IMG/VR virus record: IMGVR_UViG_3300032288_003197
Coordinates: 1 to 64,000 of that record
Direction: 5' to 3' (one strand)
Length of the DNA stretch: 64,000 bases
Source: a virus
Shown here: positions 1 through 14,412 of the stretch, one piece after another
How the letters are laid out: each line of letters begins with the position of its first letter
Position numbering within the stretch: position 1 is the stretch's first letter
Position numbers and translations under genes: made by a program
Notes under the pieces: generated by a model
What the model saw: only the letters and a program-made list of their open reading frames with translations
The model's database searches: none
Told to the model about the DNA's origin: nothing

Positions 1-308
1 AGTTTCAAAGGTTTGCCGTTGTGCTGATTGATCCCACAACAGGCACACAAGTATTCACGTTTTCTAGCGGGTTCTCTGAGCGGAACTGCTGATGCGGGCG
101 GCAGCCCCAGACTGTGATCTTGCGCATCATGCGGTGTGCGCTGTTTGACCAGTCCATCTATGCGACGTTGAATAAACGATTTTTGATTTAATCGTGTGTG
201 TTCAGATACTTCACAATCGCGACTACAAAACCCAGGGGTAATTTTTTCTTGGGATCTGGTGTATGCTTGGTTGCAATAACCACAGTAGTGTTGAAAGTAA
301 ATGCTCAT
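1..308 (-). CDS. HNH homing endonuclease, partial (runs off window start)
   Basis: Manual translation from ATG 308: MSIYFQHYCGYC...FCSRDC...YLCACCGINQHNGKPLK, paralleling the CEECGISNVYNGKPLSLELDH segment of the HNH at 2474-2980. Confidence 0.7.
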   Translation of the reverse strand, partial: MSIYFQHYCGYCNQAYTRSQEKITPGFCSRDCEVSEHTRLNQKSFIQRRIDGLVKQRTPHDAQDHSLGLPPASAVPLREPARKREYLCACCGINQHNGKPLK

Positions 309-319
309 ACTGTATTTAT

Positions 320-397
320 TGGAGCATCGGGCTGGATTTGAACCAGCGAATCAACGGATTTGCAATCCGCGCCATTAGACCGCTCTGGTACCGATGC
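320..397 (-). tRNA. tRNA-Cys(GCA)
   Basis: Cloverleaf, anticodon loop TTGCAAA, GGTTCAAATCC, encoded CCA. Confidence 0.95.
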
Positions 398-403
398 ATT
401 GTT

Positions 404-478
404 TGGTAGGTGGTGACGGGATCGAACCGCCGACAGCTGCCGTGTAAAGACAGAGTTCTACCGCTGAACTAACCACCC
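404..478 (-). tRNA. tRNA-Val(TAC)
   Basis: Cloverleaf, loop TTTACAC, GGTTCGATCCC, CCA. Confidence 0.95.
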
Positions 479-486
479 AAATTGCG

Positions 487-648
487 TTATTGTTTGGTGC
501 GTTTGCTGCCGCGCAGTTCGCTTTCAAGAATGCGAACATAGTCCCGAACAAATTCACCGCGATGGTGATCATCAAGAATCTTTGCAGCTATGCGTTTTAC
601 ACTCTTGGGGAGCTTCACTGCTCGTGGATCATAACCTCTGCATGTCAT
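487..648 (-). CDS. hypothetical protein (MTCRGYDPRAVKL...)
   Basis: ORF filling the gap between tRNAs; start trimmed to the ATG outside tRNA-Pro. Confidence 0.6.
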   Translation of the reverse strand: MTCRGYDPRAVKLPKSVKRIAAKILDDHHRGEFVRDYVRILESELRGSKRTKQ

Positions 649-667
649 ATCTACTCTTTCTAAAAAA

Positions 668-744
668 TGGTCGGAGTACAAGGATTCGAACCTTGGACCC
701 CCTGGTCCCAAACCAGGTGCGCTACCAGACTGCGCCACACTCCG
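668..744 (-). tRNA. tRNA-Pro(TGG)
   Basis: CGGAGTG acceptor, loop TTTGGGA, CCA. Confidence 0.95.
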
Positions 745-751
745 AATAAAC

Positions 752-967
752 TTACTTTAACTTTGGATCAATGCTTTTGTCAACTTCATGCGACTCTGCA
801 AACCGTTGTGGTTGGTCCATCCACATGGGAAAAAACTTCCACCCAAAACTTTTCCAGTATTTGTGAATGATGTTATTGATGAGCACTGCTCCAGCAACAA
901 TCACAATCAAACCCATCATTATCAAAATGCTTGCTGCTAAAAACACAGCTGACTGATCCATGTTCAT
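752..967 (-). CDS. small membrane protein
   Basis: AAGGA RBS; N-terminal hydrophobic helix. Confidence 0.65.
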   Translation of the reverse strand: MNMDQSAVFLAASILIMMGLIVIVAGAVLINNIIHKYWKSFGWKFFPMWMDQPQRFAESHEVDKSIDPKLK

Positions 968-977
968 GTTATTCCTT

Positions 978-1051
978 TGGAGCGGGGCAGGAGAATCGAA
1001 CTCCTCGCATGAGCTTGGAAGGCTCAGGTATTACCACTATACGAGCCCCGC
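978..1051 (-). tRNA. tRNA-Gly(TCC)
   Basis: Cloverleaf, loop CTTCCAA, CCA. Confidence 0.95.
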
Positions 1052-1065
1052 GTTGCAATTTAGTT

Positions 1066-1094
1066 ATTGTACGACAACTCGTCATTGTCGTCAA
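1066..1094 (-). promoter_or_regulatory. sigma70-type promoter inside tRNA array
   Basis: TTGACG-17nt-TACAAT upstream of tRNA-Gly(TCC). Confidence 0.65.
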
Positions 1095-1100
1095 CACATT

Positions 1101-1177
1101 TGGTGGTGAAGGTCAGGATCGAACTGACGACCTCAGGGTTATGAATCCTGCGCTCTCACCGGCTGAGCTACATCACC
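1101..1177 (-). tRNA. tRNA-Met(CAT), probably elongator
   Basis: Cloverleaf, loop TTCATAA, paired 1-72. Confidence 0.9.
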
Positions 1178-1178
1178 A

Positions 1179-1253
1179 TGGGGTGTCGTATGAGAATCGA
1201 ACTCATGATAGCGGAATCACAACCCGCGGTTTTACCACTAAACTAACGTCACC
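1179..1253 (-). tRNA. tRNA-His(GTG)
   Basis: Loop TTGTGAT, G-1/C73 signature, CCA. Confidence 0.93.
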
Positions 1254-1287
1254 ATATAGAAACACACTACAACAATAGGTTTTTATA

Positions 1288-1361
1288 TGGTAGGGGTGCA
1301 GGGGAACGATCCCTGTTTTACTGGTTAAAAGCCAGTTACTTCACCTTAAAGTTTCACCCCC
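1288..1361 (-). tRNA. tRNA-Lys(TTT), atypical T-loop
   Basis: ACTGG-CTTTTAA-CCAGT anticodon arm, CCA; T-loop reads GATCGTTC instead of GTTCGAATC. Confidence 0.85.
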
Positions 1362-1389
1362 TGGGTTTATCACTCTTGTCACTGTCCAT
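1354..1389 (-). CDS. putative 11-aa micropeptide MDSDKSDKPRG
   Basis: Strong AAGGAG RBS before ATG; stop TGA lies inside the 5' end of tRNA-Lys. Confidence 0.4.
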   Translation of the reverse strand: MDSDKSDKPRG

Positions 1390-1436
1390 GGGACTCTCCT
1401 TTTAATTAAACTTTTGATGCAATCTGTAAATATTGC

Positions 1437-2234
1437 ATGTCAGATATCACAGTAATTTTTCAAAATCAACCGCCAATACATATCAAACTCTATGATACTG
1501 CTGCTGCCGCGCATTGGCGCAAACTGTTTGTTCAAAACTATCAACAAAAATTTCCACTGTTTCGGGACATGCAAAAATATACCTGGAAATATCTTGAACA
1601 TCTAGTAGATCAGGCAAACAAAACATGTGGATGGAATTTTACAACACAAATTCAAAATCTTCAAGACACAGTGGATTTGCACAAACACATTGAAGTCACG
1701 TTGGCCAACGGATATCAAAACATCCCATCTGACTGGGACCACTTGCTGGACGAGTTACATTTTGCCTTGCATACTGTCCAGCAAACAAAACTGTCTAACA
1801 TATCACGCCGTGGTAACTTTCTTCAAATTGAGTGGTTCAACGATGATTATGTTCCATTACCAGAAGATTTTGTGTTTACATCAAATCTTCAATTTGGAGA
1901 TCTAAGACTTCAAAATGCCTATGTGGGGCACATCCCGTTACAGATTTTTGAACAAAATGATTTTGCCAATGTTTTTCAAACTTGTCGATTTCATGACAGA
2001 ATCAAACCGGGACTAAACATTACAATTTTTTCAGGCAACCGTGTACTACCCAACATCGAAACCTATACTCAATGGTGGAATACTCATGCCCCAGAGTTTG
2101 TCAAATATCATGGCTGGAACAAAATTATGTACTACACTGGACATCCAATCATTGGGCAAGTTGTCAACACCGATGATCTTGCCAAGGTTGCCACATGTGC
2201 CGAAGTATTAGAACTTCAAGAAGTGATTTACTGA
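1437..2234 (+). CDS. hypothetical protein
   Basis: 265-aa ORF, AT-richer than flanks; only convincing plus-strand gene in the window. Confidence 0.8.
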   Translation: MSDITVIFQNQPPIHIKLYDTAAAAHWRKLFVQNYQQKFPLFRDMQKYTWKYLEHLVDQANKTCGWNFTTQIQNLQDTVDLHKHIEVTLANGYQNIPSDWDHLLDELHFALHTVQQTKLSNISRRGNFLQIEWFNDDYVPLPEDFVFTSNLQFGDLRLQNAYVGHIPLQIFEQNDFANVFQTCRFHDRIKPGLNITIFSGNRVLPNIETYTQWWNTHAPEFVKYHGWNKIMYYTGHPIIGQVVNTDDLAKVATCAEVLELQEVIY

Positions 2235-2244
2235 TTTAAAAATT

Positions 2245-2325
2245 TGGTACCCCAGACGGGATTTGAACCCGCATTTAAATTTCTCCTTTTGAGAGAGACG
2301 ACTTTGCCAATTTGTCTACTGGGGC
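2245..2325 (-). tRNA. tRNA-Leu(CAA)
   Basis: Loop CTCAAAA, extended variable arm, CCA. Confidence 0.9.
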
Positions 2326-2332
2326 ACAAAAA

Positions 2333-2408
<76 letters not shown>

Positions 2409-2415
2409 ATTGTAT

Positions 2416-2491
2416 TGGCTCCCCGACCTGGATTCGAACCAGGCTTCACGGATTAACAGTCCGCCGCCTTCACCTAGATTGCTCTCGGGGA
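2416..2491 (-). tRNA. tRNA-Asn(GTT)
   Basis: Loop CTGTTAA, G73, CCA. Confidence 0.93.
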
Positions 2492-2980
2492 ATTTAATTT
2501 TTTGTATCTTATATTTTTTGCTCGGTGTGTCGGTGTTTGACTATGACAGTTCGGACACAAGATACGCAAGTTTTCAATTTTATTATTAACGTTGTTTCCG
2601 TCTATGTGATCTAATTCTAATGATAATGGCTTGCCGTTGTAAACATTGCTAATTCCACATTCTTCGCAAGTATGATTGCGTTCAACTAACAATCTTCTTC
2701 GCAATGAATCATGGGCCATTTCTTCGTGTGGACGACTCCAAGATTTTGCTCTATGAATTGCAGAAGTTTTTCTTTGGGCTTCCGCTTTATCATACTTTAA
2801 CATCTTTTGAGCATTAATTTCTTTGCGCTGTGCTTCGGTAGTATCAGAATAAAAGTCCAACATTGCCTTGCGCTTTTTTTCTTTAGATTTGTCTGTAAAA
2901 GTCCTGCTGTTAGCACAACTTCGGCTGCAAAACAAACCTTGTTTTTCATGAACCATGCTGCATTTTGGACATGCTTTCAT
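2474..2980 (-). CDS. HNH homing endonuclease
   Basis: CxxC...LELDHIDGNNVNNKIENLRILCPNCH; stop overlaps tRNA-Asn 5' end. Confidence 0.92.
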   Translation of the reverse strand: MKACPKCSMVHEKQGLFCSRSCANSRTFTDKSKEKKRKAMLDFYSDTTEAQRKEINAQKMLKYDKAEAQRKTSAIHRAKSWSRPHEEMAHDSLRRRLLVERNHTCEECGISNVYNGKPLSLELDHIDGNNVNNKIENLRILCPNCHSQTPTHRAKNIRYKKLNSPRAI

Positions 2981-2983
2981 ATT

Positions 2984-3021
2984 GAACCTCCGATACTTTT
3001 ATTTATATCTTTCGGAGGTTC
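2984..3021 (-). promoter_or_regulatory. RBS-sequestering hairpin with late promoter in its loop
   Basis: GAACCTCCGA/TCGGAGGTTC 10-bp stem hides GGAGG; TATAAATA in the loop. Confidence 0.8.
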
Positions 3022-3035
3022 GACGCTAGATAACT

Positions 3036-3110
3036 TGGTGCCCCGGGGGTGAATCGAACACCCGACCTCGGATTACAAAACCGATGTTTTACCACTAGAA
3101 CTAACGGGGC
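3036..3110 (-). tRNA. tRNA-Thr(TGT)
   Basis: Loop TTTGTAA, CCA. Confidence 0.94.
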
Positions 3111-3119
3111 TAAATTTTT

Positions 3120-3209
3120 TGGCGGAGAGTTAGGGAGTCGAACCCTATCAGCGGCTCGTCACCACCGCGGGATTAGCAATCCCGTGCCTTACCATCCGGC
3201 CCACTCTCC
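3120..3209 (-). tRNA. tRNA-Ser(GCT)
   Basis: Loop TTGCTAA, long variable arm, G73. Confidence 0.95.
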
Positions 3210-3218
3210 GTCTACGCT

Positions 3219-3247
3219 ATTATATAGTCGACACTGTTGTGTGTCAA
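3219..3247 (-). promoter_or_regulatory. sigma70-type promoter inside tRNA array
   Basis: TTGACA-17nt-TATAAT, perfect consensus, upstream of tRNA-Ser. Confidence 0.75.
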
Positions 3248-3255
3248 CAAAATCT

Positions 3256-3332
3256 TGGTGCCTGTTCGTGGTCTCGAACCACGGACCCCCGCGTTATCAA
3301 CACGGTGCTCTAACCAACTGAGCTAAACAGGC
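3256..3332 (-). tRNA. tRNA-Ile(GAT)
   Basis: Loop TTGATAA, CCA. Confidence 0.95.
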
Positions 3333-3335
3333 CAC

Positions 3336-3411
3336 TGGCAGGGGATGATGGGATCGAACCACCGAATGTCTGAATCAAAATCAGATGCCTTACCACTTGG
3401 CGAATCCCCTA
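3336..3411 (-). tRNA. tRNA-Gln(TTG)
   Basis: Loop TTTTGAT, CCA. Confidence 0.93.
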
Positions 3412-3417
3412 CAAACA

Positions 3418-3492
3418 TGGCATCCCGCCAGGGATTCGAACCCCGTCCCACGGTTTTGGAGACCGTCATGCTGCCGTTGACACCAGCGAGAT
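3418..3492 (-). tRNA. tRNA-Trp(CCA)
   Basis: Loop CTCCAAA, CCA end. Confidence 0.92.
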
Positions 3493-3499
3493 ACAAATA

Positions 3500-3575
3500 T
3501 GGTGGAGGTAAACGGGATCGAACCGATGACCCCCTGCTTGCAAAGCAGGTGCTCTCCCAGCTGAGCTATACCCCC
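3500..3575 (-). tRNA. tRNA-Ala(TGC)
   Basis: G3:U70, loop TTTGCAA. Confidence 0.96.
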
Positions 3576-3584
3576 AAACTTTTA

Positions 3585-3785
3585 ACACACTCTTGAGAAT
3601 GTGTGTATTAAAGCATACTAGCCGCTCTGTTTCTTCTGTATGCCTACAGATTGTATCCATTCGTCTAATATGCTTTAATACGCTGTGATTTTTCACACCA
3701 CACAAGGTGCTCCATCCCACAGGCCGCCCATTTGCAACTGTTTAGAGTGTGTTGCAGGATCGCGTTTCCTGGTCGCACTTGGAGA
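3585..3785 (-). ncRNA. unassigned structured RNA candidate(s)
   Basis: 17-bp stem 3605-3621/3665-3681 (G-U pair only on minus strand) plus a GC-rich multi-stem unit at about 3703-3782; no credible ORF. Confidence 0.5.
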
Positions 3786-3959
3786 TCAAAGATCAAAAAT
3801 TCGAGCTTTGGATTCTCTCTGGTTTACTTTTTCACGAAATGCTCGAGCTCGTTCATACTTTTCATCAATCAGTTTGCGAAACTGTTCCTCGGTAAGGTGA
3901 TTTTCAGTAGTGAATTTGATCTCTCGCATGCGTTTTCTAAAATCAATTTTTTCCTTCAT
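3786..3959 (-). CDS. small basic hypothetical protein (MKEKIDFRKR...)
   Basis: ORF starting just after the attenuator terminator. Confidence 0.6.
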   Translation of the reverse strand: MKEKIDFRKRMREIKFTTENHLTEEQFRKLIDEKYERARAFREKVNQRESKARIFDL

Positions 3960-3971
3960 AATCTTTTGCAA

Positions 3972-4039
3972 AACAAAAAACCCAGGGTGTTTAGTCCTGG
4001 GTCCTGGGGTAAGATACAGTTGTATGTTACTTAGGACCC
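3972..4039 (-). terminator. attenuator 1: mutually exclusive terminator/antiterminator
   Basis: Terminator ACCCAGG-loop-CCTGGGT+TTTTT; antiterminator GGGTCCT(4039-4033)/AGGACCC(4005-3999) shares ACCC with the terminator. Confidence 0.8.
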
Positions 4040-4141
4040 TGAGCCTCCTGGAATGCTGTTCAAGCCTGTAAATGTGCGTGGCCAGACTGATGTCTGAGGC
4101 ATCGCAGATTTTTGTAGCACTGAACACATTGTATGTTTCAT
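4031..4141 (-). CDS. leader peptide 1 (36 aa) MKHTMCSVLQKSAMPQTSVWPRTFTGLNSIPGGSGS
   Basis: Manual translation; directly behind promoter; last codons and stop overlap the antiterminator 5' strand. Confidence 0.72.
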   Translation of the reverse strand: MKHTMCSVLQKSAMPQTSVWPRTFTGLNSIPGGSGS

Positions 4142-4151
4142 CTTAAGTCCT

Positions 4152-4180
4152 ATTGTACTTTATTTATGATTGTTTGTCAA
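4152..4180 (-). promoter_or_regulatory. composite sigma70 + late promoter for leader 1
   Basis: TTGACA-17nt-TACAAT with CATAAATA inside the spacer. Confidence 0.75.
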
Positions 4181-4209
4181 CCAAGAATTGATTCCGTGTT
4201 ACGCGGAAT

Positions 4210-4284
4210 TGGTTGCGGGGGGAGGAATCGAACCTCCGGCTTCCAGGTTATGAGCCTGGCGGTCTACCGCTGACGTACCCCGCG
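4210..4284 (-). tRNA. initiator tRNA-fMet(CAT)
   Basis: C1:A72 mismatch, CGCGGGG acceptor, loop CTCATAA. Confidence 0.9.
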
Positions 4285-4312
4285 ATATGTTATAAATCAA
4301 ACAAGTTGTTGG

Positions 4313-5146
4313 TCAGCCCGGAAACCAATCTTTTTCTTCGTCGAACTTGTAGTTGTCTGGCAGTACAACCTTGTTTGAATGATCAACCAAATCAAGCAAT
4401 TGAGGTTTGGGAACCCCAGTAATTCTAATTTGTCTTCTACGTGAAGTGCAAACCGGAACTCCATGCAAAAAGTAATCACTGGACAAATACACCGGATCGT
4501 TGGATTTCAAAACTGTTTTGTTGTCAGCACCGTCCAAACTCCACCACAGTGGAACACCGCCATCACTGAGATTTAGCACCATGATCACATGTCCTTGTTG
4601 ATATACACCATTGTTGACACCTAAATTTTTAGTAAATGATGTTCCACTATCAAATTCATATCTCAAGTCGCGATGTATGCAGGCAAACGATCCCGGCTCC
4701 ATGCTTACGCAATGTATACTTACAATTCTTTGAAACGGTAATTTTTTTAAAATAAATTCTACAATTTTTAATTGCTTGAACTCGGGTTTTAACTTGTACA
4801 ATCTATGCAAATGATGATTGCGCATGGTAGAACCGCCTATGCCAGCACGTAGTTTTACATACTCACTATCTGAGTCAACAAGGTGAAGTTCCAATAATTG
4901 AGTTATATCAAATTGAGGAATCCCATCAGAAATACCACATTCTGTTTCCACACTGATCTTATCATACAAGTCTGGATCTACCATGCCCCAACTTTGATTG
5001 AGTTGCCGGGTGTTACTCCAAACTGATTCAAGAGATCTTATTTGTCGTGCCGCTGGTAAAATACAATTATCATATTCATCGATAAAAATTGTAGGATCAA
5101 AATCAATGTTGAGTTTTGCGTAGGCAAAATTTGCAAATGGGTGCAT
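4313..5146 (-). CDS. putative 2OG-Fe(II) oxygenase-like protein
   Basis: HxD (IHRD)...H (FLHGV)...R pattern. Confidence 0.55.
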   Translation of the reverse strand: MHPFANFAYAKLNIDFDPTIFIDEYDNCILPAARQIRSLESVWSNTRQLNQSWGMVDPDLYDKISVETECGISDGIPQFDITQLLELHLVDSDSEYVKLRAGIGGSTMRNHHLHRLYKLKPEFKQLKIVEFILKKLPFQRIVSIHCVSMEPGSFACIHRDLRYEFDSGTSFTKNLGVNNGVYQQGHVIMVLNLSDGGVPLWWSLDGADNKTVLKSNDPVYLSSDYFLHGVPVCTSRRRQIRITGVPKPQLLDLVDHSNKVVLPDNYKFDEEKDWFPG

Positions 5147-5191
5147 GGGGTATTTATTGGTACAAAGTCGCATTTCAAACTATTACAACTT

Positions 5192-5411
5192 CAATTTGTT
5201 TTGGTCAAACTGGTCGTCTTCTGCTTTGCGTTTAAAGGTACACAATGCTTGTGTGTAAAGCATGGTCTTCCTTCCAGGCACATGGACTGACTGTGACTAG
5301 CAGTCCAGAACTTAATCCCCAGCGGCCCTGGATTCAGTATTGTCCTCAGCAGATAGGCCCGTCGTCATCGAGTTTTTGACACAGACAGACCAGTTTGACC
5401 AAAACAAATTG
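5192..5411 (-). ncRNA. unassigned structured RNA closed by a perfect 24-bp inverted repeat
   Basis: CAATTTGTTTTGGTCAAACTGGTC (5192-5215) / its reverse complement (5388-5411); internal hairpins such as TGGACTG/CAGTCCA. Confidence 0.6.
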
Positions 5412-5500
5412 GTAGGAGTGGTGGGAATCGAACCCACATTCGCCGCCTTATCTAGACGGTGCTTACGAGGATATAAATCTCGCCCTTAGGCCAATATTAG
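5410..5500 (-). tRNA. atypical tRNA-like RNA, apparent anticodon TAT, very long variable arm
   Basis: GGGAGTG/CACTCCT-A-CCA acceptor and canonical T-arm; weak D-stem; loop TTTATAT; about 28-nt extra region with CCGTCT/AGGCGG stem. Confidence 0.7.
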
Positions 5501-5519
5501 CAACACTCCCATTATTCTC

Positions 5520-5667
5520 ATAGTCAAGCACCGAGAGATGCCGATTTGTCAACAAAGGTGCTTCCTCTGACAAGCGAATAGCAGTTATATCAGGACCTGT
5601 TCCTCGCACAGTTAGGCCCGCATAGTGACAGCGTCCCGTCACGATACCTGTATCGATGCTTGACTAT
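5520..5667 (-). ncRNA. unassigned structured RNA
   Basis: 15-bp closing stem ATAGTCAAGCATCGA/TCGGTGCTTGACTAT plus internal hairpins GTGACG/TGTCAC and TTGTCA/TGACAA. Confidence 0.55.
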
Positions 5668-5677
5668 AAAAACAAAA

Positions 5678-5875
5678 ATGCTCTGCATCCCCCGGCGGTA
5701 ATTGTACTGCATCAAGTACCAGGAACCCCCAGCACCATCACACACAGCTTCCACCCGCTTCACGACAGGGACCGTTATCGTATTGCCAACGCTGTTTAGG
5801 CTAGAACAGTACCGCCCGTGAGTGTCATCTCACTTCTCATCGTCTGGGACCAGACTATCCAGTGACGCTGGAACG
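5678..5875 (-). ncRNA. manA-motif RNA
   Basis: Recalled motif blocks CCCAGACGATGAGAAG, GGGCGGT, GCAATACGA, GCGGGTGGAAG, AATTACCGCCG; this motif is known from phage tRNA clusters. Confidence 0.75.
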
Positions 5876-5884
5876 TTTGTTTGC

Positions 5885-6073
5885 TCACCGAACTGGCGAG
5901 CGTAATTTAAATGTTGGTGACGGTGTCAAGTTCTCTGGCGGCTTGACAACCACAGTGTTGGACTGTCGATAATCTCGAAAAATTTCCAACACCAACCATG
6001 CCCATACTGCTATAGAAGTCACAGCGATCATGCTCAAAAGAACGATGCCAAACCAATGCATAATAGTCGTCAT
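5885..6073 (-). CDS. small membrane protein
   Basis: MTTIMHWFGIVLLSMIAV... single hydrophobic helix; start trimmed to avoid tRNAs. Confidence 0.6.
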   Translation of the reverse strand: MTTIMHWFGIVLLSMIAVTSIAVWAWLVLEIFRDYRQSNTVVVKPPENLTPSPTFKLRSPVR

Positions 6074-6084
6074 GTTGTATTTAA

Positions 6085-6161
6085 TGGCGCACCGTAGGGG
6101 ACTTGAACCCCTGACCCCTTGCGTGACAGGCAAGTGCGCTGACCAACTGCGCCAACGGTGC
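6085..6161 (-). tRNA. tRNA-Asp(GTC)
   Basis: Loop CTGTCAC, G73. Confidence 0.95.
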
Positions 6162-6162
6162 A

Positions 6163-6247
6163 TGGTGGAGATGATTGGGATCGAACCAATTGTGACCGAA
6201 GTCGGCGGATTTACAGTCCGCTGCCATACCATTACGGCGGCACCTCC
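6163..6247 (-). tRNA. tRNA-Tyr(GTA)
   Basis: Loop CTGTAAA, long variable arm. Confidence 0.95.
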
Positions 6248-6326
6248 ATGATACTTGCTACGGGACGCCAAATTCTTACGGTCGTTTAAGAGTAGGCGGC
6301 CACAGCCGCACACTCTCCCTTAAAAA

Positions 6327-6402
6327 TGGTACTCGGTACGGGAATCGAACCCGTCTTACTGACGTGAAAGGCCAGTGTCCTAAACCGATAGACGAACCGA
6401 GC
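6327..6402 (-). tRNA. tRNA-Glu(TTC)
   Basis: Loop CTTTCAC, CCA. Confidence 0.94.
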
Positions 6403-6477
6403 AATTCTATATGTAAACACACAAATTGTGTGCTTGCATATAGAGTCTGCACTCAACGCAGACTCTATACGAATCTA

Positions 6478-6545
6478 ATTTTTAAAGAACGTTGTCGGTT
6501 TCCCAACACAGCCTCTAGTATAACACTCTAGGCTTTTTGTGTCTA
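6478..6545 (-). promoter_or_regulatory. sigma70 promoter followed by rrn-like boxB-boxA
   Basis: TAGACA-17nt-TATACT; then TGTTGG-GAAA-CCGACA hairpin and CGTTCTTTAAAAAT. Confidence 0.65.
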
Positions 6546-6551
6546 CCACAT

Positions 6552-6618
6552 AAAGAAAAACCCTGCTAGTTGCAGGGCCTTTGTTGATGTAGTAATTTTT
6601 ACTTACTGACAAAGACCC
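6552..6618 (-). terminator. attenuator 2: terminator/antiterminator
   Basis: Terminator CCCTGC-AACTA-GCAGGG+TTTTTCTTT; antiterminator GGGTCTTTGT(6618-6609)/ACAAAGGCCC(6584-6575) overlaps its 5' arm. Confidence 0.78.
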
Positions 6619-6680
6619 AACAGAACACCCTGCTCATAATCTGAGCCCTGTATAGGATTGAATGCGATTGTTGTCATCAT
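6603..6680 (-). CDS. leader peptide 2 (25 aa) MMTTIAFNPIQGSDYEQGVLLGLCQ
   Basis: Manual translation; ATG 7 nt after the -10 box (leaderless); last codons overlap the antiterminator 5' strand. Confidence 0.68.
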   Translation of the reverse strand: MMTTIAFNPIQGSDYEQGVLLGLCQ

Positions 6681-6686
6681 GGTGTA

Positions 6687-6715
6687 ATTGTATATGATTA
6701 TTTATACTGTGTCAA
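6687..6715 (-). promoter_or_regulatory. composite sigma70 + late promoter for leader 2
   Basis: TTGACA-17nt-TACAAT with TATAAATA (6706-6699) inside the spacer. Confidence 0.75.
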
Positions 6716-6767
6716 GCGAAAGACTTCAAATTTGGACAAATAGATCGATTGCACAGCACGATCAAGC

Positions 6768-7490
6768 TCACAGAGCCCGAACCCACTCGGTGGGTCGCAA
6801 CCATGTGCTGTAGATATGATCTGCTGTGGCTTGATGTTGTGCCAAGTGTGGTTCTATGCCGGCCACTATGGCTGCACTGTCTTGTACAGATTCGTACAGC
6901 TCTCGTGCTTGGGCCCACTTGGGGTCTTCGTCTGCTGCCCAGGCCTGTGCTTTTTCTGCGTCCATTTCGATGTGAAACTGCATGGCTAGATGTGGACCCA
7001 TGCTCCAGGCTTGGTTAGGACAAGCACTGGATCCAGCCAAGCGTGTGGCGCCCCGAGGCACCGTGAATGCGTCATAGTGCCATTGAATCACTGTGGGTGT
7101 GGGTGCAGGACCAAACCATTTTTCAACTTCGGCATGGGTTTCATATTGTATAGACTGCCAACCAATCTCGGGCCGGGGCGAAGTGCCCACAGTTGCTCCT
7201 AGTGCTCGACTCATGAGTTGTCCGCCAAGACAGTGTCCAATCACTGGAACATCCCGAAGCACAGCCTGCAAGATCAATATTTCAGCCTGACGATTACTCA
7301 GCAAGTCATCATTGGCACTCATGCCACCGCCCATGACAGCCAAGGCTGCATAGGGTTCAATGCTGGCAGGGAATGGTTGTCCTAGCCCAGCGTTGTGAAC
7401 TTCAAACTTGATCTCGTGTTGGGTCAACCATGTCACAAGGTAAGCCGCCCACTCCGGGGTTTGATGCTGTAGTATTAGTATGGGTTTCAT
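6768..7490 (-). CDS. class I glutamine amidotransferase
   Basis: GHCLGGQ nucleophile elbow and QFHIE His-Glu. Confidence 0.9.
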   Translation of the reverse strand: MKPILILQHQTPEWAAYLVTWLTQHEIKFEVHNAGLGQPFPASIEPYAALAVMGGGMSANDDLLSNRQAEILILQAVLRDVPVIGHCLGGQLMSRALGATVGTSPRPEIGWQSIQYETHAEVEKWFGPAPTPTVIQWHYDAFTVPRGATRLAGSSACPNQAWSMGPHLAMQFHIEMDAEKAQAWAADEDPKWAQARELYESVQDSAAIVAGIEPHLAQHQATADHIYSTWLRPTEWVRAL

Positions 7491-8074
7491 TACAAGGCCT
7501 GTTGGATTCTATCAAGTATGATTTCTACTACTTGATTGCTGAGTACAACTTCGTAGTGATTTAGTGGTAATTCTATGAGTTCAAAGTCTGTTCTTGATCG
7601 CATGCTTTCTATTGTGACAACACCATCATTGGATTCTTGAATCCAAGGACTGTCGCCACGAGTTGTGACAATATTGGTCCAACGTGGTGGTGCAGGTAAT
7701 TTTTTTGCGTCCAGCATGGGTCCACTCATGGTTCCGATATCTTTCATCAAGCGATTAAAGGGCAAAAAGTATCGTGCAAAGTCTGCTTGAGCACACCCAC
7801 CATACGGAGTGCTGAGTGATATGCCACCGCAGGTTCGATCTTGATAATGATTGGCCAGGTGCAAGGCATAGATACCGCCCAGGCTATGGCTGACAAAAAA
7901 CAGTCTTTCTGCATCATCCAAGGCGCCTTTCATGAGGCCAAGGTTGTGGGCAAACCCATCTGCACTGTTGTATTCAAGTGCGATGTCTGGCAATTCGGTG
8001 TGTTCTCTCACATATTCTCTAATGTGGGTGAAGCTTTCGGCAGTGGCACTGGCACCGTGTATATACACTATCAT
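7490..8074 (-). CDS. alpha/beta hydrolase
   Basis: YIHG, SHSLGG, DGVV, NH catalytic motifs. Confidence 0.88.
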   Translation of the reverse strand: MIVYIHGASATAESFTHIREYVREHTELPDIALEYNSADGFAHNLGLMKGALDDAERLFFVSHSLGGIYALHLANHYQDRTCGGISLSTPYGGCAQADFARYFLPFNRLMKDIGTMSGPMLDAKKLPAPPRWTNIVTTRGDSPWIQESNDGVVTIESMRSRTDFELIELPLNHYEVVLSNQVVEIILDRIQQAL

Positions 8075-8093
8075 CGAAATATTTAGCCAAAGG

Positions 8094-8115
8094 AAAACCC
8101 GCCGAAGCGGGCTCC
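8094..8115 (-). terminator. intrinsic terminator after tmRNA
   Basis: GCCCGC-TTCG-GCGGGT-TTT. Confidence 0.8.
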
Positions 8116-8456
8116 GAGTTTCTGTTACGAGGTATGTCTTACCCTAGGCTGCGTTTAGGCTGCCAATGCGAACTGTTCGTCGTTTGCGTTTACGTTTTTT
8201 GCTTGATTTACGGTCATCGCCTACCGTGCTGTCCACTCCGTTACTCTTGACCCAATCGATCCTGTGTCAGGCCCATCAAAAAGATTCTTCCATCTGTCCA
8301 GTGCTTCGTGATAGCTGATCCAGACACATCCTTCGCAACCTCGGCCACAACAAGTAGTTGGCTCTTGTGGTCTAGGGTAAAAATCTTTTTGGTGGACCTG
8401 GGCGGCACTGCCCCGCCGTCTTGAATCCGTTTCTCTTTGCTTCATACAGCAATAAC
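8115..8456 (-). ncRNA. ssrA: permuted two-piece tmRNA, tag ANDEQFALAA
   Basis: Acceptor piece ends GGTCCACCA (8390); intervening segment 8389-8275; coding piece starts GGGCCTGAC (8274); tag frame 8187-8155; promoter TTGACG-17-TATACT upstream. Confidence 0.92.
8221..8445 (-). CDS. ORF through tmRNA carrying a Cys-rich oxidoreductase-like domain in the intervening segment
   Basis: [29 protein letters not shown] resembles the Oxidored-like N-terminal domain (PxEP..CC..GC..CVW..Y...L..W). Confidence 0.5.
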
Positions 8457-8472
8457 TTGCAGTATACTGTTT

Positions 8473-8691
8473 TTAGATATTGTCGTCAACCAGTTCGATC
8501 ACGTAGCCAATGTATTCTTTGGCGCGCTCACCGTCGCCAGCATCAATGGCTCCTTGTGCATCATCCAAGTAACCCATCATCTGACTGCGCAGATCGGCCA
8601 TGCTGCCTTCGCGTCGGTCTGGACGAGGAGCATCCATTGCGTCTGCTTCTTTGATGATGTCAATGTATCGTTTTAAATTGCTCATGGTCAA
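8473..8691 (-). CDS. hypothetical protein, possible internal virion protein
   Basis: TATAAATA late promoter and AGGA RBS; N-terminus LKRYIDIIKE. Confidence 0.7.
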   Translation of the reverse strand: MTMSNLKRYIDIIKEADAMDAPRPDRREGSMADLRSQMMGYLDDAQGAIDAGDGERAKEYIGYVIELVDDNI

Positions 8692-8724
8692 AATCCTTTG
8701 GTGTATTTATAGATAGATCAGTTT

Positions 8725-9378
8725 TTATTTGAGTATTTGTAGATCCTGGTGCTGGGACACGCGGGTAAACTCAATGTTGGGGGGCGTATTCCTACTGATT
8801 TGTATGGCCACACGAACGGACTCGACGTTCTCTACCGCATGCAATATTGCACTGTTGATACACACCCATTTCTCTGCGGGCAAGCAAACTCGATCAATTT
8901 CTTCCAATGTGTCAAAATTCTTTGTGATGAGATTGGGATCAAAAACTGACTTCAAGTCAGGGCGCAAGAGCGGATACCCATGCTGTCTGTACCATGATGT
9001 TTCTACACGACTGCCGCCAGTGTCCAGGATATACATGATAGTGTAGTCCCTACTGATGTCCACGTGCGGGGCAAAGAACGAACTGTGTGCGTCATATACT
9101 GCTACACCACATGGCGCAGGGTCTTGATCAAAATACTGGCGTACCCATGCATCAAACTCTTCGCTGATACTGTACCTATGAGACTTTATTGTCTTGACTT
9201 CCGACCCATCTCGCAGAGTAAAATTTCGATATTCATACTCTGCATAGCCTGGCCGATCAAGCCAATTATTCACCTTGACTTCGTGATTGCCCTTGTTTGT
9301 TTCTAGACTTGCCCAGGCCGCATCCACAATTGTTTGCGGCAAGGGTGGCAAGTCTAAAAATGCATAGGTAAATGTCAC
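8725..9378 (-). CDS. putative 2OG-Fe(II) oxygenase-like protein
   Basis: APHVD...LHAVEN...RVAIQ. Confidence 0.6.
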   Translation of the reverse strand: MTFTYAFLDLPPLPQTIVDAAWASLETNKGNHEVKVNNWLDRPGYAEYEYRNFTLRDGSEVKTIKSHRYSISEEFDAWVRQYFDQDPAPCGVAVYDAHSSFFAPHVDISRDYTIMYILDTGGSRVETSWYRQHGYPLLRPDLKSVFDPNLITKNFDTLEEIDRVCLPAEKWVCINSAILHAVENVESVRVAIQISRNTPPNIEFTRVSQHQDLQILK

Positions 9379-10262
9379 TTTTTGGTTTTTTCTGCTATTT
9401 GTTCAAAGATTCGAATTTCTCTGTTGGCATACTGCGCAGATCTCTGTGGTCCATAATTCAACACAGTAAGACCCAGCAAATCTTTGAAACTGGTATTGGT
9501 GGAATCTTGAACCAGTCGTGACATTTCTGTTACAGCAGTACGATCGGTGTCTTGTCTGGCCCAGACTGCGTACCAATTGTTGGTGTAATTTCCACTGAAT
9601 CCCATTTCACTGGCAGTGGGCACATTTGGCAGCTGAGGCAGTCTCCGCTCTCCAAACACCATGACAGGACGAACTTGTCCGTTGTTGAAAGACGGCCCAA
9701 TTCCGGTGTAAGCCAAAACTCCGTATTCAGTATGACCGGGCAACACATCGTTGACCATTGGTGCCAGCCCTTTGTAAGGAATCAAGTTGAGTCGCGTGGG
9801 CCATTTTAGATCATTGAGCCATATTTCTCCTTGATTGGCAACACCCACATTAATGATGTCTTGATTTCGGATCTGTTGTCTGATCTTGGTATCGCTGCCA
9901 GCGGTGAACATCACATATGGACTTTCGCCGATCAATGACACTGGTACAAATTCTCGATAAGTGTTGGTGCCCAGCATTGCCGGACCCACCACAAATCCAG
10001 CCTCGGCAACGATAAATGTGTGATTGTCGTTGGGCCTATTCAAAACATGTGTGGTAGCAACCGCCAGTGCCGCGCCAGGCATGTATTGAACTTCAACTGG
10101 AACTGAAACTTTACCTTGAAAGTCTTTTTGCATGGCTCTTGCAAATTTATCAATAAGTCCACCAGGCGGATACGGAACAATAAGAGTAATGGACTTAGAC
10201 GGCCATGCCAGTGCAGACACTGAGATTAGCATGGCCGAGATAAAGGTCAACAGTTTTTTCAT
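9375..10262 (-). CDS. Bug/TctC tripartite tricarboxylate transporter substrate-binding protein
   Basis: Signal peptide, WPSKSITLIVPYPPGG, IPYKG, RLPQLPNVPTASEMG. Confidence 0.88.
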   Translation of the reverse strand: MKKLLTFISAMLISVSALAWPSKSITLIVPYPPGGLIDKFARAMQKDFQGKVSVPVEVQYMPGAALAVATTHVLNRPNDNHTFIVAEAGFVVGPAMLGTNTYREFVPVSLIGESPYVMFTAGSDTKIRQQIRNQDIINVGVANQGEIWLNDLKWPTRLNLIPYKGLAPMVNDVLPGHTEYGVLAYTGIGPSFNNGQVRPVMVFGERRLPQLPNVPTASEMGFSGNYTNNWYAVWARQDTDRTAVTEMSRLVQDSTNTSFKDLLGLTVLNYGPQRSAQYANREIRIFEQIAEKTKK

Positions 10263-10352
10263 ATATCCTCTCAAAAAGTAATTGTTGAACAAAAGCACTG
10301 CTAGAGTGCTTTTGTCCGGTGCTGACAACGGGGACGATTCCCGCGTTGCTGT

Positions 10353-11312
10353 TTATTGATGTTGTTGAATGCTTTCGACCAAACCAGGAGTGAATGTATC
10401 GCGGAATTGATCATACACACCGCTCAGTGCAGCCTTGGCAGCTTCGCGTTGTTCTTGTGTCCACTTCACAATGTTGGCACCTTCTTCTGCAACAAGACGC
10501 TGTTCGGCACGAGCACCGTCACGAATGGTTTCGGCACGCTCTTCGCGACCAGCCAGCACAGCAGCTTGTTTGATCACTGCTTGAACTTCGGGACTCAATG
10601 TATCCCAGAACTTGTCGCCAATGATCATTGATGTAAGGAACAAACTGTGACCAGTGTCAATCACTGACTTGGTAACTTCGTTCTGACGCAGTGGATACAC
10701 ACGTGGGTAGTTGGTTTCACCGCCTTCAGCTTCACCGTCAACCACGACCTGACGCAGGTCTTCTACTTCGGCCACAACAGGCTTCATGCCCAGTGCAGAA
10801 ATAGTTGCTTGTGCAACAGGATTACGGTTTGAACGAACTGGTGTTCCTGCAAGCTCTTCCAATGTGCTGACTCGCTTGTTGGAAATCATTTGGCGGAAGC
10901 CACCTGAGTATGTGAAACTCAAGCCACGCACATTTGACTTGTCTGTGAGCTTGGCAAGCAGTGTTTCACCAACTTTGCCCTCTAGTACACGAGTTGCGTG
11001 ATCGTGGTCTTTGAACAAGAATGGGAGATCAAATACCAAAAAGTCCTGCTCGTACTTCTCAGCAAGCCATGTGGTGTACATTTGACTCATTTCAATTTTG
11101 CCCTGTTCCATGAGGTCCAGTAGATCGTGCTTGGTGACCACAACGCCGTTGTTGTAGCGTTGGCTGTACTCGGTAAGAGTCATGATTTCCACTTCGATTT
11201 TGTGCTCGCTTTGTTGCTCGTTTACACGACGCTCAAAGTCTTCAGCAGCACGAAGGAAAAGATTCAAAGGTTCATGGGCAATGACCCAGCGAATTTTGGT
11301 AGTGTTACTCAT
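10353..11312 (-). CDS. DctP-family TRAP substrate-binding protein without signal peptide
   Basis: FDLPFLFKDHDHA, GGFRQM, KFWDTLSPEVQAVI; N-terminus not hydrophobic. Confidence 0.85.
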   Translation of the reverse strand: MSNTTKIRWVIAHEPLNLFLRAAEDFERRVNEQQSEHKIEVEIMTLTEYSQRYNNGVVVTKHDLLDLMEQGKIEMSQMYTTWLAEKYEQDFLVFDLPFLFKDHDHATRVLEGKVGETLLAKLTDKSNVRGLSFTYSGGFRQMISNKRVSTLEELAGTPVRSNRNPVAQATISALGMKPVVAEVEDLRQVVVDGEAEGGETNYPRVYPLRQNEVTKSVIDTGHSLFLTSMIIGDKFWDTLSPEVQAVIKQAAVLAGREERAETIRDGARAEQRLVAEEGANIVKWTQEQREAAKAALSGVYDQFRDTFTPGLVESIQQHQ

Positions 11313-11455
11313 TTTTATATCCAGATTAGGTAGTTTAAATGTGCTTGCGAGGTTGCTCGCTACGGTTGGCGTTCTAGGCATAACATGCTAGTAAAGGAGT
11401 CCATACTCCAGGCGTCTTTGACCCGACGTCGACCACTTGATCGGCGCTGCCATGT

Positions 11456-12355
11456 TTATTTAGTCAGAGACACGCCTTGACTCAAACGTTTCCATAGTGC
11501 CACCTGTGAATCAAACCAAATCTGTGTGGCCGTGGTGTTGAGGTTGCTGGGATCACAGTAGTCCACAGCATAGGCACGCTGCACTGCATCTGTTCGGCCG
11601 GCTTGCAGTACCAAACTTCGCAGTTCTTGGTACTGTGCTTCGGGCATGGATTTTGGCACTTGCAAACTGTGCATGTTAACCACCTCGCCCACTCCAGCAA
11701 AGCCCTGACTTTCCAAGGTGGCAATGCCACGCACTGTTTTCTTGCCTGAAATGCCCAGGGCGTTGAGGTCACCCTTGTCCAAGAATCCTTCAACTTCGCC
11801 CAAGAATGCCACGCTGAGATCAATGTTGCCCGAGATAGCATCAATACTGGCTTCGCGTGTGCCTTTGTAGGGCACCGGGGTGGCGTTGGGATAGCGTTTG
11901 ACAATTTCCATGGCCATGAGGTGTGAAGTGGCGCCAAGGCCAGAAATGCCAATGCTGATCTTTTGATTGCGGTCAATTTCACGCCAACTACGATACTTCT
12001 TGCTCACAATCAACATGGGTGCTGCACACTGAGTCATCAGCGGACGGAAGTCACTGACTCGATGACTCTCATCGGGATAAAAGTTAGGGCGCACAAAAAA
12101 AGCTGTACTCGCGGCCAGCACAGCGTTTGGTGTAGCTGCCACATGTTTGGCACCAATGGTTGCACCGGCACCGGGCTTGTTCTCCAAGATAAAGTTGTAT
12201 TTCTTTTGACCAGCGTTGAGCTCTTCTACCAAGCTGCGACTGTACTGTGCCTGTGTATCGCCCATGCCAAACGGCCAAACAATAGAAATAGTTTGTTGTG
12301 CTTGTGCAGCAAAATATGTCAGAGCCGCTGCTGCAGAAATTAGAAGTTTTTTCAT
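11456..12355 (-). CDS. Bug/TctC-family substrate-binding protein
   Basis: Signal peptide, ENKPGAGATIG, SGLGATSHL, VPYKG. Confidence 0.88.
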   Translation of the reverse strand: MKKLLISAAAALTYFAAQAQQTISIVWPFGMGDTQAQYSRSLVEELNAGQKKYNFILENKPGAGATIGAKHVAATPNAVLAASTAFFVRPNFYPDESHRVSDFRPLMTQCAAPMLIVSKKYRSWREIDRNQKISIGISGLGATSHLMAMEIVKRYPNATPVPYKGTREASIDAISGNIDLSVAFLGEVEGFLDKGDLNALGISGKKTVRGIATLESQGFAGVGEVVNMHSLQVPKSMPEAQYQELRSLVLQAGRTDAVQRAYAVDYCDPSNLNTTATQIWFDSQVALWKRLSQGVSLTK

Positions 12356-13536: not shown

Positions 13537-14092
13537 TGTTGTTTTCTTCTAGTACTTTCCAGCCCAACTTCAGTAGATCCTCTCGGATCTCATCAGTCAC
13601 AACACTCTCACCGACAAAGTTTTCTTGATACCACTCATGTTTGGCACGTTCGTCTTCAGTCATTGACTCTAGATCTTCGTCGGTGGGTTTACCGCGAATC
13701 CCGGTGCAATACCAGTCGATGTAGTCGCCCTCTTCGCGCATGTCTGCAACAATGCCCCCAGCATAACGCCATGAGCACGAGTAGGTTTGACCTTTGAGCA
13801 AAGGCCATGTTTCTAGCTTCTGGAAGTCATTGTTGCACATTGCGGCATACAGGTTCTGTGCATACTCTTCACGAGCTTTGGCCTTGTCGCAGATCCATTT
13901 GGTACTGCGCAAATCGTATTCAAGATTGTTTTCTTTCCACTCGGGCTTGGCTTCACGCTCAGCTTGGTGTTGAGCAAAAATGTTATGAAACTCAATCATT
14001 TCCTCAGCATGTTCGGCAGTGGTATTGCCCTCTTCCACACGTCGAAGAAGACTATCTCGTTGAAACTTACCACGCTCAGGACTGGAATTCAT
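13529..14092 (-). CDS. conserved phage hypothetical protein
   Basis: ORF translationally coupled to neighbours; SCSWRYAGGIVADMR, YIDWYC. Confidence 0.75.
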   Translation of the reverse strand: MNSSPERGKFQRDSLLRRVEEGNTTAEHAEEMIEFHNIFAQHQAEREAKPEWKENNLEYDLRSTKWICDKAKAREEYAQNLYAAMCNNDFQKLETWPLLKGQTYSCSWRYAGGIVADMREEGDYIDWYCTGIRGKPTDEDLESMTEDERAKHEWYQENFVGESVVTDEIREDLLKLGWKVLEENNND

Positions 14093-14322: not shown

Positions 14323-14334
14323 GTATATATCCTT

Positions 14335-14409
14335 TGGTCCGGCCACCAGGAATCGAACCTGGATTGACTGCTTAGAAGGCAGATGTTCTATCCATTGAAC
14401 TATGGCCAG
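14335..14409 (-). tRNA. tRNA-Arg(TCT)
   Basis: Loop CTTCTAA, CCA. Confidence 0.93.
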
Positions 14410-14412
14410 AAT

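Follow-up and report, generated by a model that had tools for sequence, protein, structure and literature searches.

Two short open reading frames (ORFs), each placed between a strong promoter and an intrinsic terminator and upstream of tRNA genes, were analyzed in a 64,000-nucleotide (nt) stretch of viral DNA (IMG/VR record IMGVR_UViG_3300032288_003197, positions 1 to 64,000; referred to as the window). With a probability of roughly 0.55, we favor the reading that these two elements, leader 1 and leader 2, are ribosome-mediated attenuators: arrival of a ribosome at the stop codon would let the terminator form, a stalled ribosome would permit read-through, and the leader codons would be tuned to the tRNAs encoded downstream, thus providing feedback. 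By computation we observed the anatomy of the elements, a reading frame kept open without conservation of its peptide, covariation of the leader 1 helices, a need for read-through, and a codon match that is confined to the reading frame. Translation of the ORFs, a change of fold upon stalling and an altered tRNA output are what we infer from these observations. The window represents the first 64 kb of a 72-kb contig, and since CheckV rated this contig 21% complete, it originates from a jumbo phage. The features of the window located below are on the minus strand.

Leader 1 begins with the promoter TTGACA-17-TACAAT (4152 to 4180; 11 of 12 matches), and a motif scan detected a late box (CATAAATA/TAAATAAA; 4159-4166) in its spacer. 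Leader ORF 1 (4031 to 4141; 36 codons plus stop; peptide MKHTMCSVLQKSAMPQTSVWPRTFTGLNSIPGGSGS) starts with an ATG 10 nt past the −10 box, and its peptide contains no Asp, Glu or Tyr. The end of the ORF provides the 5′ strand of an antiterminator (3999 to 4052) recognized by complementarity and covariation. In its helix A, GGGTCCT (4039-4033) pairs with AGGACCC (4005-3999), and the last base of GGGTCCT is the first base of the stop codon. In an outer helix, TCCAGG (4052-4047) is able to pair with the 3′ arm of the terminator. This intrinsic terminator (3975 to 4002) is composed of ACCCAGG, a 9-nt loop, CCTGGGT and the T-run TTTTTT (3980-3975), and it forms when the ORF end is masked. It shares the CCC of AGGACCC with helix A. 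Because of the 9-nt loop, a simple terminator scan missed it. The geometry of trp/his-type attenuation that had been proposed from the sequence is thus present in leader 1, where the ORF end is the 5′ strand of an antiterminator overlapping the terminator, and it is conserved in relatives.

Leader 2 has the same plan. Its promoter, TTGACA(6715)-17-TACAAT(6687), extends from 6687 to 6715 (11 of 12 matches) and carries the late box TATAAATA in the spacer (6699-6706; motif scan). Leader ORF 2 (6603 to 6680; 25 codons plus stop; peptide MMTTIAFNPIQGSDYEQGVLLGLCQ) starts 6 nt past the −10 box, at the predicted transcription start. Folding and alignment revealed a hairpin inside this ORF, GCTCA-GATTA-TGAGC (6632 to 6646), which carries the Asp-Tyr-Glu codons; 91.7% of its alignment cells are paired and its changes are one-sided only. 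A candidate antiterminator (6575 to 6618) was found by complementarity between GGGTCTTTG (6618-6610, codons 22-24) and CAAAGGCCC (6583-6575). The CAAAGGCCC strand overlaps the intrinsic terminator (6582-6556), which has 11 pairs followed by a T-run and is present in the minimum-energy fold. Directly behind it lies a second promoter, TAGACA-17-TATACT (6517 to 6545), conserved in all eight homologues, and then come tRNA-Glu(ttc), tRNA-Tyr(gta) and tRNA-Asp(gtc) (6085 to 6402; ARAGORN).

A promoter, an ATG at the predicted start site, a short ORF, a competing helix and a terminator are therefore found at both sites, as the original prediction had claimed, and chance does not account for their combination. 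When we searched both strands for a promoter with at least 10 of 12 matches, an ATG 5 to 10 nt past the −10 box, an ORF of 12 to 60 codons and a hairpin with T-run, the composite was detected twice in the window, compared to a mean of 0.025 in 40 approximately dinucleotide-preserving shuffles.

Relatives were collected with a 286-amino-acid gene that lies between both leaders and has many metagenomic homologues; this anchor yielded 23 viral and 67 metagenome loci (numbered with the prefix L). Leader 1 has 16 distinct homologues, all with a promoter and an ORF of 35 to 42 codons that terminates at helix A or beside it. All 16 retain both this promoter and the TAAATAAA box, and the ATG is 7 nt past the −10 box in 14 of them and 10 nt in the window and L029. 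For leader 2 we found eight sequences, all with 25 codons, a retained promoter and an ATG 6 nt past the −10 box. The center of the leader 2 peptide reads Asp-Tyr-Glu-Gln in the window and Glu-His-Glu-x-Asp in the relatives. More distant leaders follow the same plan with other letters: L048 (37 amino acids), L062 (48), L010/L052 (21) and L101 (39). In L048 (GGGTTTTGG:CCAAAACCC) and L062, helix A is rebuilt with a different sequence. Searches of GenBank phages (megablast and blastn; query 3500-6800) returned tRNA-sized matches only and no cultured relative.

Between the leader 1 terminator and the first tRNA gene, an alignment fold revealed a conserved structured RNA (3578 to 3782), also present at L005 5232-5419 and L101 1338-1530, with a length of approximately 150 to 210 nt. 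RNAalifold predicted 36 pairs, 16 of them with compensatory change; the region had no Rfam match. A total of 96 IMG/VR stretches contain its motif, CAAATGGGCGG-N6-GGATG, the largest of their contigs measuring 364 kb. Among the 80 motif loci that we fetched, 34 passed a strict scan for leaderless ORFs and gave 24 distinct peptides. Of the 46 that failed, 2 are situated at a contig end; a terminator is present within 420 nt in 26 and absent from that distance in 18. Four of these 26 were inspected, and in all four a homologous ORF ends before the terminator, either behind a 5′ untranslated region or with a start further upstream; the other 42 failing loci enter no count. Judged by these comparisons, both leaders belong to a conserved family. 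It is widespread in contigs of uncultured freshwater jumbo phages, where the adjoining RNA motif alone marks the 96 IMG/VR stretches.

The proposal that both stems covary was borne out for leader 1. In helix A, 10 sequences have CG and 6 have UA at pair 117:159, and 95.7% of the alignment cells are paired; in the terminator, three pairs are changed on both sides and 98.6% of the cells are paired. In both cases the score was reached by none of 500 shuffles. The 5′ strand of helix A ends with the first base of the stop codon in 15 of the 16 leader 1 sequences; in L080 the stop is five codons later. Furthermore, the competing fold is the minimum-energy fold in 14/16 (−21.6 to −31.1 kcal/mol), while the free folds of L032 and L031 already contain a terminator-type hairpin. 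When the ORF end was masked, all 16 sequences folded into the terminator (−13.1 to −17.9 kcal/mol). For leader 2 the proposal held for one terminator pair only (CG in six sequences, GC in two); the antiterminator showed no compensatory change, with 7 of 9 pairs invariant and one unpaired in 5/8. The leader 2 antiterminator helix, predicted from complementarity, is thus to be regarded as possible.

The ORFs are kept open, and their peptides are free to change. In leader 1, parsimony gave 157 substitution events, distributed as 46, 52 and 59 over codon positions 1, 2 and 3, and 49 changes were synonymous compared to 45.1 expected at random (P = 0.27). No new stop codon had arisen, while 7.2 were expected (P = 0.0006; P = 0.008 with inclusion of one parsimony intermediate). 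Insertions and deletions in the ORF measure 3, 3 and 6 nt; those of 1 nt occur just behind the stop. In line with this, leader 2 showed 66 events (21, 22 and 23 over the three positions), 21 synonymous changes against 19.6 expected, no stops against 3.6 expected (P = 0.025) and no insertion or deletion in the ORF. The frame is open in 16/16 leader 1 and 8/8 leader 2 sequences. An open frame combined with a freely changing peptide is the signature of a regulatory leader ORF, and it speaks against a plain small RNA as well as against a functional micropeptide.

The terminator of leader 1 must also be passed at a useful rate, since genes or a tRNA start 12 to 25 nt behind the T-run and leave no room for a promoter. 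In the window, a 57-amino-acid ORF without a promoter of its own (3786 to 3959; ORF scan) begins approximately 15 nt behind the T-run; ORFs of 57 to 60 amino acids begin 15 to 20 nt behind it in 4/16 leader 1 sequences (the clade of the window and L080). In 7/16, a 15-amino-acid ORF with an AAGGAG Shine-Dalgarno sequence follows after approximately 20 to 25 nt, and in L010 tRNA-Gly begins 12 nt behind the T-run. No promoter with at least 9 of 12 matches was found between 3975 and 3575 in the window, so the Ala, Trp, Gln and Ile tRNAs there need read-through or transcripts from upstream. Likewise, L005 has no promoter-like site between the terminator and its first tRNAs (Trp, Ala and Tyr).

In the original prediction, each terminator was followed by a block of tRNA genes. 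Behind leader 1 these do not follow directly, as the 57-amino-acid ORF and the structured RNA of approximately 200 nt come first. The 16 tRNA genes do follow (320 to 3575; Ala Trp Gln Ile, Ser Thr, Asn Gly Leu, Lys His Met, Gly, Pro, Val Cys; ARAGORN), and Asp, Glu and Tyr are absent from them. Their number is a lower bound, because the contig ends 320 nt past the last one. The structured RNA may be the first product of read-through.

The leaders and the tRNA genes are also linked by codon content. Leader 1 of the window has a cognate codon for 16/16 downstream anticodon species, while 10.8 ± 1.6 are expected with uniform codons (P = 0.0006). The predicted superiority over random ORFs of equal length was confirmed, since none of 40,000 36-codon windows taken from the window's own genes reached this coverage. 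At the same time, leader 1 has no codon for Glu, Tyr or Asp; the joint probability of this absence and the 16/16 coverage is 7.5e-5. A tandem of Asp, Tyr and Glu codons within 25 codons, as in leader 2, has P = 0.004 with uniform codons and P = 0.02 with real genes.

Relatives, each scored against its own downstream tRNAs, gave similar values: 17/17 in L080 (P = 0.002), 13/13 in L036, 15/15 in L038, 18/19 in L005 (P = 0.003), 15/16 in L042 and 10/11 in L031. The distant leaders cover 10/11 (L010, P = 0.004), 10/10 (L048, with all 20 amino acids within 37 codons) and 14/15 (L062). The codons serving His, Asn, Ala, Cys and Phe are at differing positions among the lineages. Drift from a covering ancestor, simulated at 25 to 44% site divergence, predicts approximately 11.5 to 14 covered species; against this null, P was 0.001 to 0.01 in seven of eight lineage pairs and 0.14 for L005 to L045.

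We then grouped the leaders into eight clusters with less than 50% peptide identity, each represented by the member with the most tRNAs and chosen by no other criterion. Together they cover 117/127 downstream tRNA species compared to 95.8 expected (combined P = 3.6e-5), and only 83/121 of the species absent downstream. The match was confined to the reading frame: in the clusters, 110/120 species were covered in frame and 85 and 84 in the shifted frames; in 27 leaders with at least eight tRNA species, the values were 367/404 versus 283 and 271, with frame 0 best in 24/27. These comparisons support the view that leader codon content tracks the downstream tRNA species, in frame only, in diverged relatives. 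The dependence on frame also lends indirect support to the predicted translation of the ORFs.

A second line of evidence came from the 91.6-kb phage G004, in which the tRNAs are split differently between two leaders, with leader B 10 kb beyond leader A. Leader A (MLNAKLLPGNTGPATEDTPRP) precedes Gly, Glu, Leu, Asp, Asn, Met, Ala, Val, Thr, Met, Pro and Gly; leader B (MTNTFISRLSQWCSKQSMSFCDSFSMSYRVRHILGACPG) precedes Met, Arg, Cys, Met, Lys, His, Phe, Gln, Ile, Trp, Ser, Arg, Leu, Ser, Leu and Arg. For codons exclusive to one block (A-only/B-only), the counts were 15/2 in leader A and 8/22 in leader B (Fisher P = 5.8e-5). The shifted frames gave P = 1.0 and 0.69, while a mononucleotide shuffle and a shuffle within codon positions gave P = 0.0003 and P = 0.002, respectively.

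Based on these data, the following mechanism can be proposed. The transcript would start at or within 3 nt of the AUG, so that a ribosome could load once the 5′ end emerges. The last codons of the ORF would act as the 5′ strand of the helix that sequesters the CCC base of the terminator 5′ arm. If a ribosome were at the stop codon in time, it would cover this strand, the terminator would form, and the transcript would end. If the ribosome were late or stalled, the competing helix would form, and the polymerase would continue into the downstream RNA and tRNA genes. With at least one leader codon for nearly every downstream tRNA species, any shortage could raise transcription of the block that supplies the missing tRNA. 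The net effect would be a negative-feedback tRNA homeostat gating strong sigma-70-type promoters. The further idea, that each tRNA block is under its own leader ORF as a test translation of its products and that a shortage opens the terminator to top up the tRNAs that run low, is put forward tentatively, as we consider it somewhat more likely to be wrong than right. The shortage could be caused by host anticodon nucleases, by phage-induced decay of host tRNAs, or by demand.

Several observations weigh against such attenuators. Regarding conservation, 18 of the 80 motif loci have no terminator within 420 nt upstream. Furthermore, under the criteria used, no leader was found in G005, G007 and G008, and G006 merely repeats leader A of G004. 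Regarding structure, the competing fold lets the terminator 3′ arm pair with TCCAGG(AG) of the ORF, and the resulting helix abuts the U-run; in such a model, it might terminate transcription anyway. This outer helix shows one-sided changes only and no compensatory change in leader 1, and in the eight leader 2 sequences the antiterminator shows no covariation. Regarding translation, most of the predicted leader mRNAs are leaderless and have no Shine-Dalgarno sequence. The ATG is 6 to 7 nt past the −10 box in 22 of 24 leader sequences, with transcription starts being predicted, and some relatives have the ORF behind a 5′ untranslated region. In the window and L029, a 3-nt leader would be expected to weaken leaderless initiation.

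The control would also be partial. The sigma70-type promoters that the original prediction had placed downstream of the terminators (6517-6545, 3219-3247 and 1066-1094) were all confirmed. The first of them is the conserved promoter behind the leader 2 terminator, and since it precedes tRNA-Glu, this gene does not rely on read-through alone. The other two, detected by promoter scan within the 16-tRNA block (3247-3219 and 1094-1066), feed most of its tRNAs. Similarly, block B of G004 has a 12/12 promoter behind leader B. Because promoters are located behind leader 2, behind leader B and inside the array, attenuation can control only part of the expression.

Finally, not all codon data fit. Coverage was modest in L045 (16/19, P = 0.07), L152, L111 and L150. 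Permuting the pairing of leaders and tRNA sets gave a P of only 0.044, owing to the similarity of these sets. The partition of Asp, Glu and Tyr between the two leaders, a central claim of the original prediction, stands in the letters of the window and has an independent counterpart in G004, but it is not general: most leader 1 relatives have an Asp codon, although their tRNA-Asp is upstream, and L151 and L152 contain both Glu and Asp codons, for which the 5 kb downstream hold no tRNA gene. Glu codons were not significantly avoided in leader 1 (2 vs 3.9 expected). The partition table gave 3/14 versus 0/25 (P = 0.06) in the window and P = 0.28 in L034, which is due to leader 2 having mostly codons of the other block. 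Some exceptions are located in or behind the antiterminator 5′ strand, and a ribosome stalled there would be unable to open the terminator; this argument was not used to rescue the partition, because the Ile, Ser(gct), Pro and Gly(tcc) codons lie there too. Separately, Tyr was lost from leader 1 and gained in leader 2 where tRNA-Tyr had moved to block 2. This is the predicted direction, and we gave it no weight because it is a single event on a long branch.

In the most serious alternative, which we consider rather improbable, the elements would be translation-coupled attenuators that sense general translation capacity or timing (ribosome availability, initiation or the stage of infection), with a functionless codon match arising from a drifting ORF that faces a nearly complete tRNA set. 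The almost neutral evolution of the leader peptide would be expected in this case, as would a leader 2 made mostly of codons of the other block. In addition, the number of distinct amino acids in the window leader is not unusual (17/20, P = 0.35; likewise in L080 and L045), and phage tRNAs can read an ordinary share of the leader codons (0.72 vs 0.70, P = 0.45). Runs of a single codon are absent from the leaders, which contain 11 to 20 different amino acids each; the only codon cluster is Asp-Tyr-Glu or Glu-His-Glu-x-Asp in leader 2. The ordinary share of readable codons and the absence of runs also count against codon-tuned attenuation. A drifting ORF does not explain, however, why coverage exceeds the uniform-codon, own-composition and drift nulls, why it is specific to one frame, why the two G004 leaders are complementary in composition and follow their two tRNA blocks, or why species that are not encoded are covered at the chance rate (83/121) and encoded ones at 117/127.

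Alternatively, the elements could be stand-alone small genes in an island of RNA genes, that is, regulatory RNAs of approximately 130 to 170 nt or micropeptide genes, in which the terminators mark gene ends and the competing helix stabilizes the 3′ end. Indeed, a strong promoter followed by a strong terminator within this distance is the anatomy of a small RNA gene, and the conserved promoter immediately after leader 2, the lack of a Shine-Dalgarno sequence and the outer helix abutting the U-run would all suit it. We nevertheless regard it as unlikely. Stops avoided in one frame, insertions and deletions in multiples of three and a tRNA match in that very frame would not be expected of a plain small RNA, and a micropeptide would show purifying selection, of which none was seen. 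Moreover, promoterless genes and, in one case, a tRNA start right behind the T-run, and related loci keep the ORF behind a 5′ untranslated region instead of a leaderless start.

Least probable of all is a special case, a counter-defense sensor tuned to host anticodon nucleases that deplete Lys, Tyr, His, Asn, Asp, Glu and Gln tRNAs: the conserved center of leader 2 does consist of NAN codons, whose boxes correspond to the tRNAs known as anticodon nuclease targets, and any sensor of tRNA shortage would respond to such nucleases too, but nothing ties the elements to defense, leader 1 samples all codon classes instead of the known targets, the NAN codons of leader 2 double as a conserved hairpin, and the data are also explained by plain feedback or by host tRNAs being lost during infection. 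A link to anticodon nucleases is speculation.

The surroundings of the leaders were also analyzed. ARAGORN detected 22 tRNA genes in the window, every one on the minus strand. tRNA-Met (4210 to 4284) is located directly upstream of the leader 1 promoter, a position also seen in relatives. A long atypical tRNA-like gene (5413 to 5510; 41 bits with the Rfam tRNA model) is probably tRNA-Ile(tat); ARAGORN reported it as Ile(tat) only under the intron option, and it found tRNA-Ile(tat) genes of 92 nt in L038 and L080. Leader 2 contains one ATA codon. An HNH endonuclease gene (2474-2980; Pfam PF01844; PHROG 10822, E = 1.5e-26) lies within the tRNA array. At 8092-8489 the phage carries a gene for transfer-messenger RNA (tmRNA), with 124 bits for the permuted tmRNA and 110 bits for the beta-proteobacterial tmRNA of Rfam, which ARAGORN did not report. 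Directly upstream of leader 2 are a class-I glutamine amidotransferase-like and an alpha/beta-hydrolase-like gene (6768-8074). By eye, we noticed long inverted-repeat arms (TAGTCAAGCA.../...TGCTTGACTA) around approximately 130 nt between tRNA genes in the window (about 5515-5665) and in L005 (about 1840-1985); this region may be another structured RNA. The 'tmRNA' called by ARAGORN at L044 3941-4259 and L045 5593-5911 covers the leader 1 terminator, the structured RNA and tRNA-Ala, and is probably a false call based on the tRNA-Ala end.

The small ORFs behind the leader 1 terminator differ between relatives. The 57-amino-acid ORF is rich in Lys, Arg and Glu, is kept in L029 and L035 and has a 60-amino-acid form in L080; L107 and L160 have similar ORFs of 55 to 62 amino acids at the equivalent place. 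A translation of 58 residues (3789-3962), starting one codon ahead of the ATG, matched no Pfam or PHROG family. The 15-amino-acid ORF (MTTEEYWKWIHDNVQ and variants) was found at L030 2867-2940 and at the equivalent place in L031, L032, L038, L039, L042 and L090. Located directly behind the leader 1 terminator and shortly before tRNA-Trp, -Ala and -Tyr, it has a high content of Trp and Tyr and might serve as a second leader peptide of classical appearance.

A late box had been claimed for both promoter spacers. This is correct for the window and holds in all 16 leader 1 sequences, but the TATAAATA box was kept in only 3/8 leader 2 sequences. Both versions are enriched in the window: TATAAATA occurs 5 times (0.85 expected) and TAAATAAA 8 times (1.85 expected), always on the minus strand. 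Copies are located at 3000, 8704, 19262, 14514 and other positions, several of them 15 to 25 nt ahead of a Shine-Dalgarno sequence and ATG or ahead of tRNA-Met at 14489. The boxes could be late promoters of the T4 type.

According to current opinion, phage tRNAs keep translation going when defense systems degrade or cleave the tRNAs of the host, and to our knowledge little has been described of how phages regulate these genes. Simple feedback would be achieved by a leader ORF that gates tRNA transcription according to the state of the tRNA pool, and attenuation would thereby be extended from amino acid sensing to tRNA sensing. If each tRNA block is indeed under such a leader ORF of its own, this would be the first attenuator known to sense tRNA rather than amino acid supply, the first to use many codons, and a new layer of phage counter-defense. 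In a search of full texts available without subscription, nothing was found on leader-peptide attenuation of tRNA genes or of phage tRNA arrays, which suggests that multi-codon leader attenuation of phage tRNA supply is so far undescribed. With a length of approximately 180 nt, consensus sigma-70 promoters and intrinsic terminators, the elements are directly testable in reporters and coupled in vitro systems.

Known systems resemble parts of this arrangement. The tRNA cluster of phage T4 holds stable small RNAs (species 1 and 2 RNAs), for which we know of no described leader ORF or attenuator. The RNA at 3578-3782 is likewise a structured non-tRNA RNA next to phage tRNA genes, probably cotranscribed with them, and by analogy may be of the same kind. 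T-box riboswitches share with the proposed mechanism a cis-acting leader RNA that switches between antiterminator and terminator according to tRNA status. They bind one uncharged tRNA via a specifier codon without translation, whereas here an open ORF would be the reading device. A scan of positions 1-16000 with E values up to 1 detected no T-box or other Rfam family in the leaders, the only hits being tRNA, tmRNA and chance matches. In mycobacteria, leaderless polycysteine short ORFs were described to attenuate operon expression (bioRxiv 10.1101/834739). In them, as is predicted here, a leaderless short ORF at the 5′ end of the transcript attenuates downstream genes; they differ by their runs of Cys codons, their response to cysteine, and protein-coding downstream genes with no phage or tRNA genes (bioRxiv 10.1101/834739).

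The closest counterparts are the leader-peptide attenuators of amino acid operons and pheST in Proteobacteria (trp, his, leu, thr, ilv and pheA). They too have a short ORF upstream of a terminator, a mutually exclusive helix that, as in leader 1, overlaps the terminator 5′ arm, and a peptide that is itself unimportant; in them the position of the ribosome selects the fold, as is predicted here. In contrast to these attenuators, the phage-borne leaders precede tRNA genes and a structured RNA instead of biosynthetic enzymes or a synthetase, their mRNAs are predicted to be leaderless with no proven region 1:2 pause hairpin, and their default fold without a ribosome would be read-through. And while the amino acid operons use a run of one codon, the phage leaders have approximately one codon for nearly every tRNA species encoded downstream.

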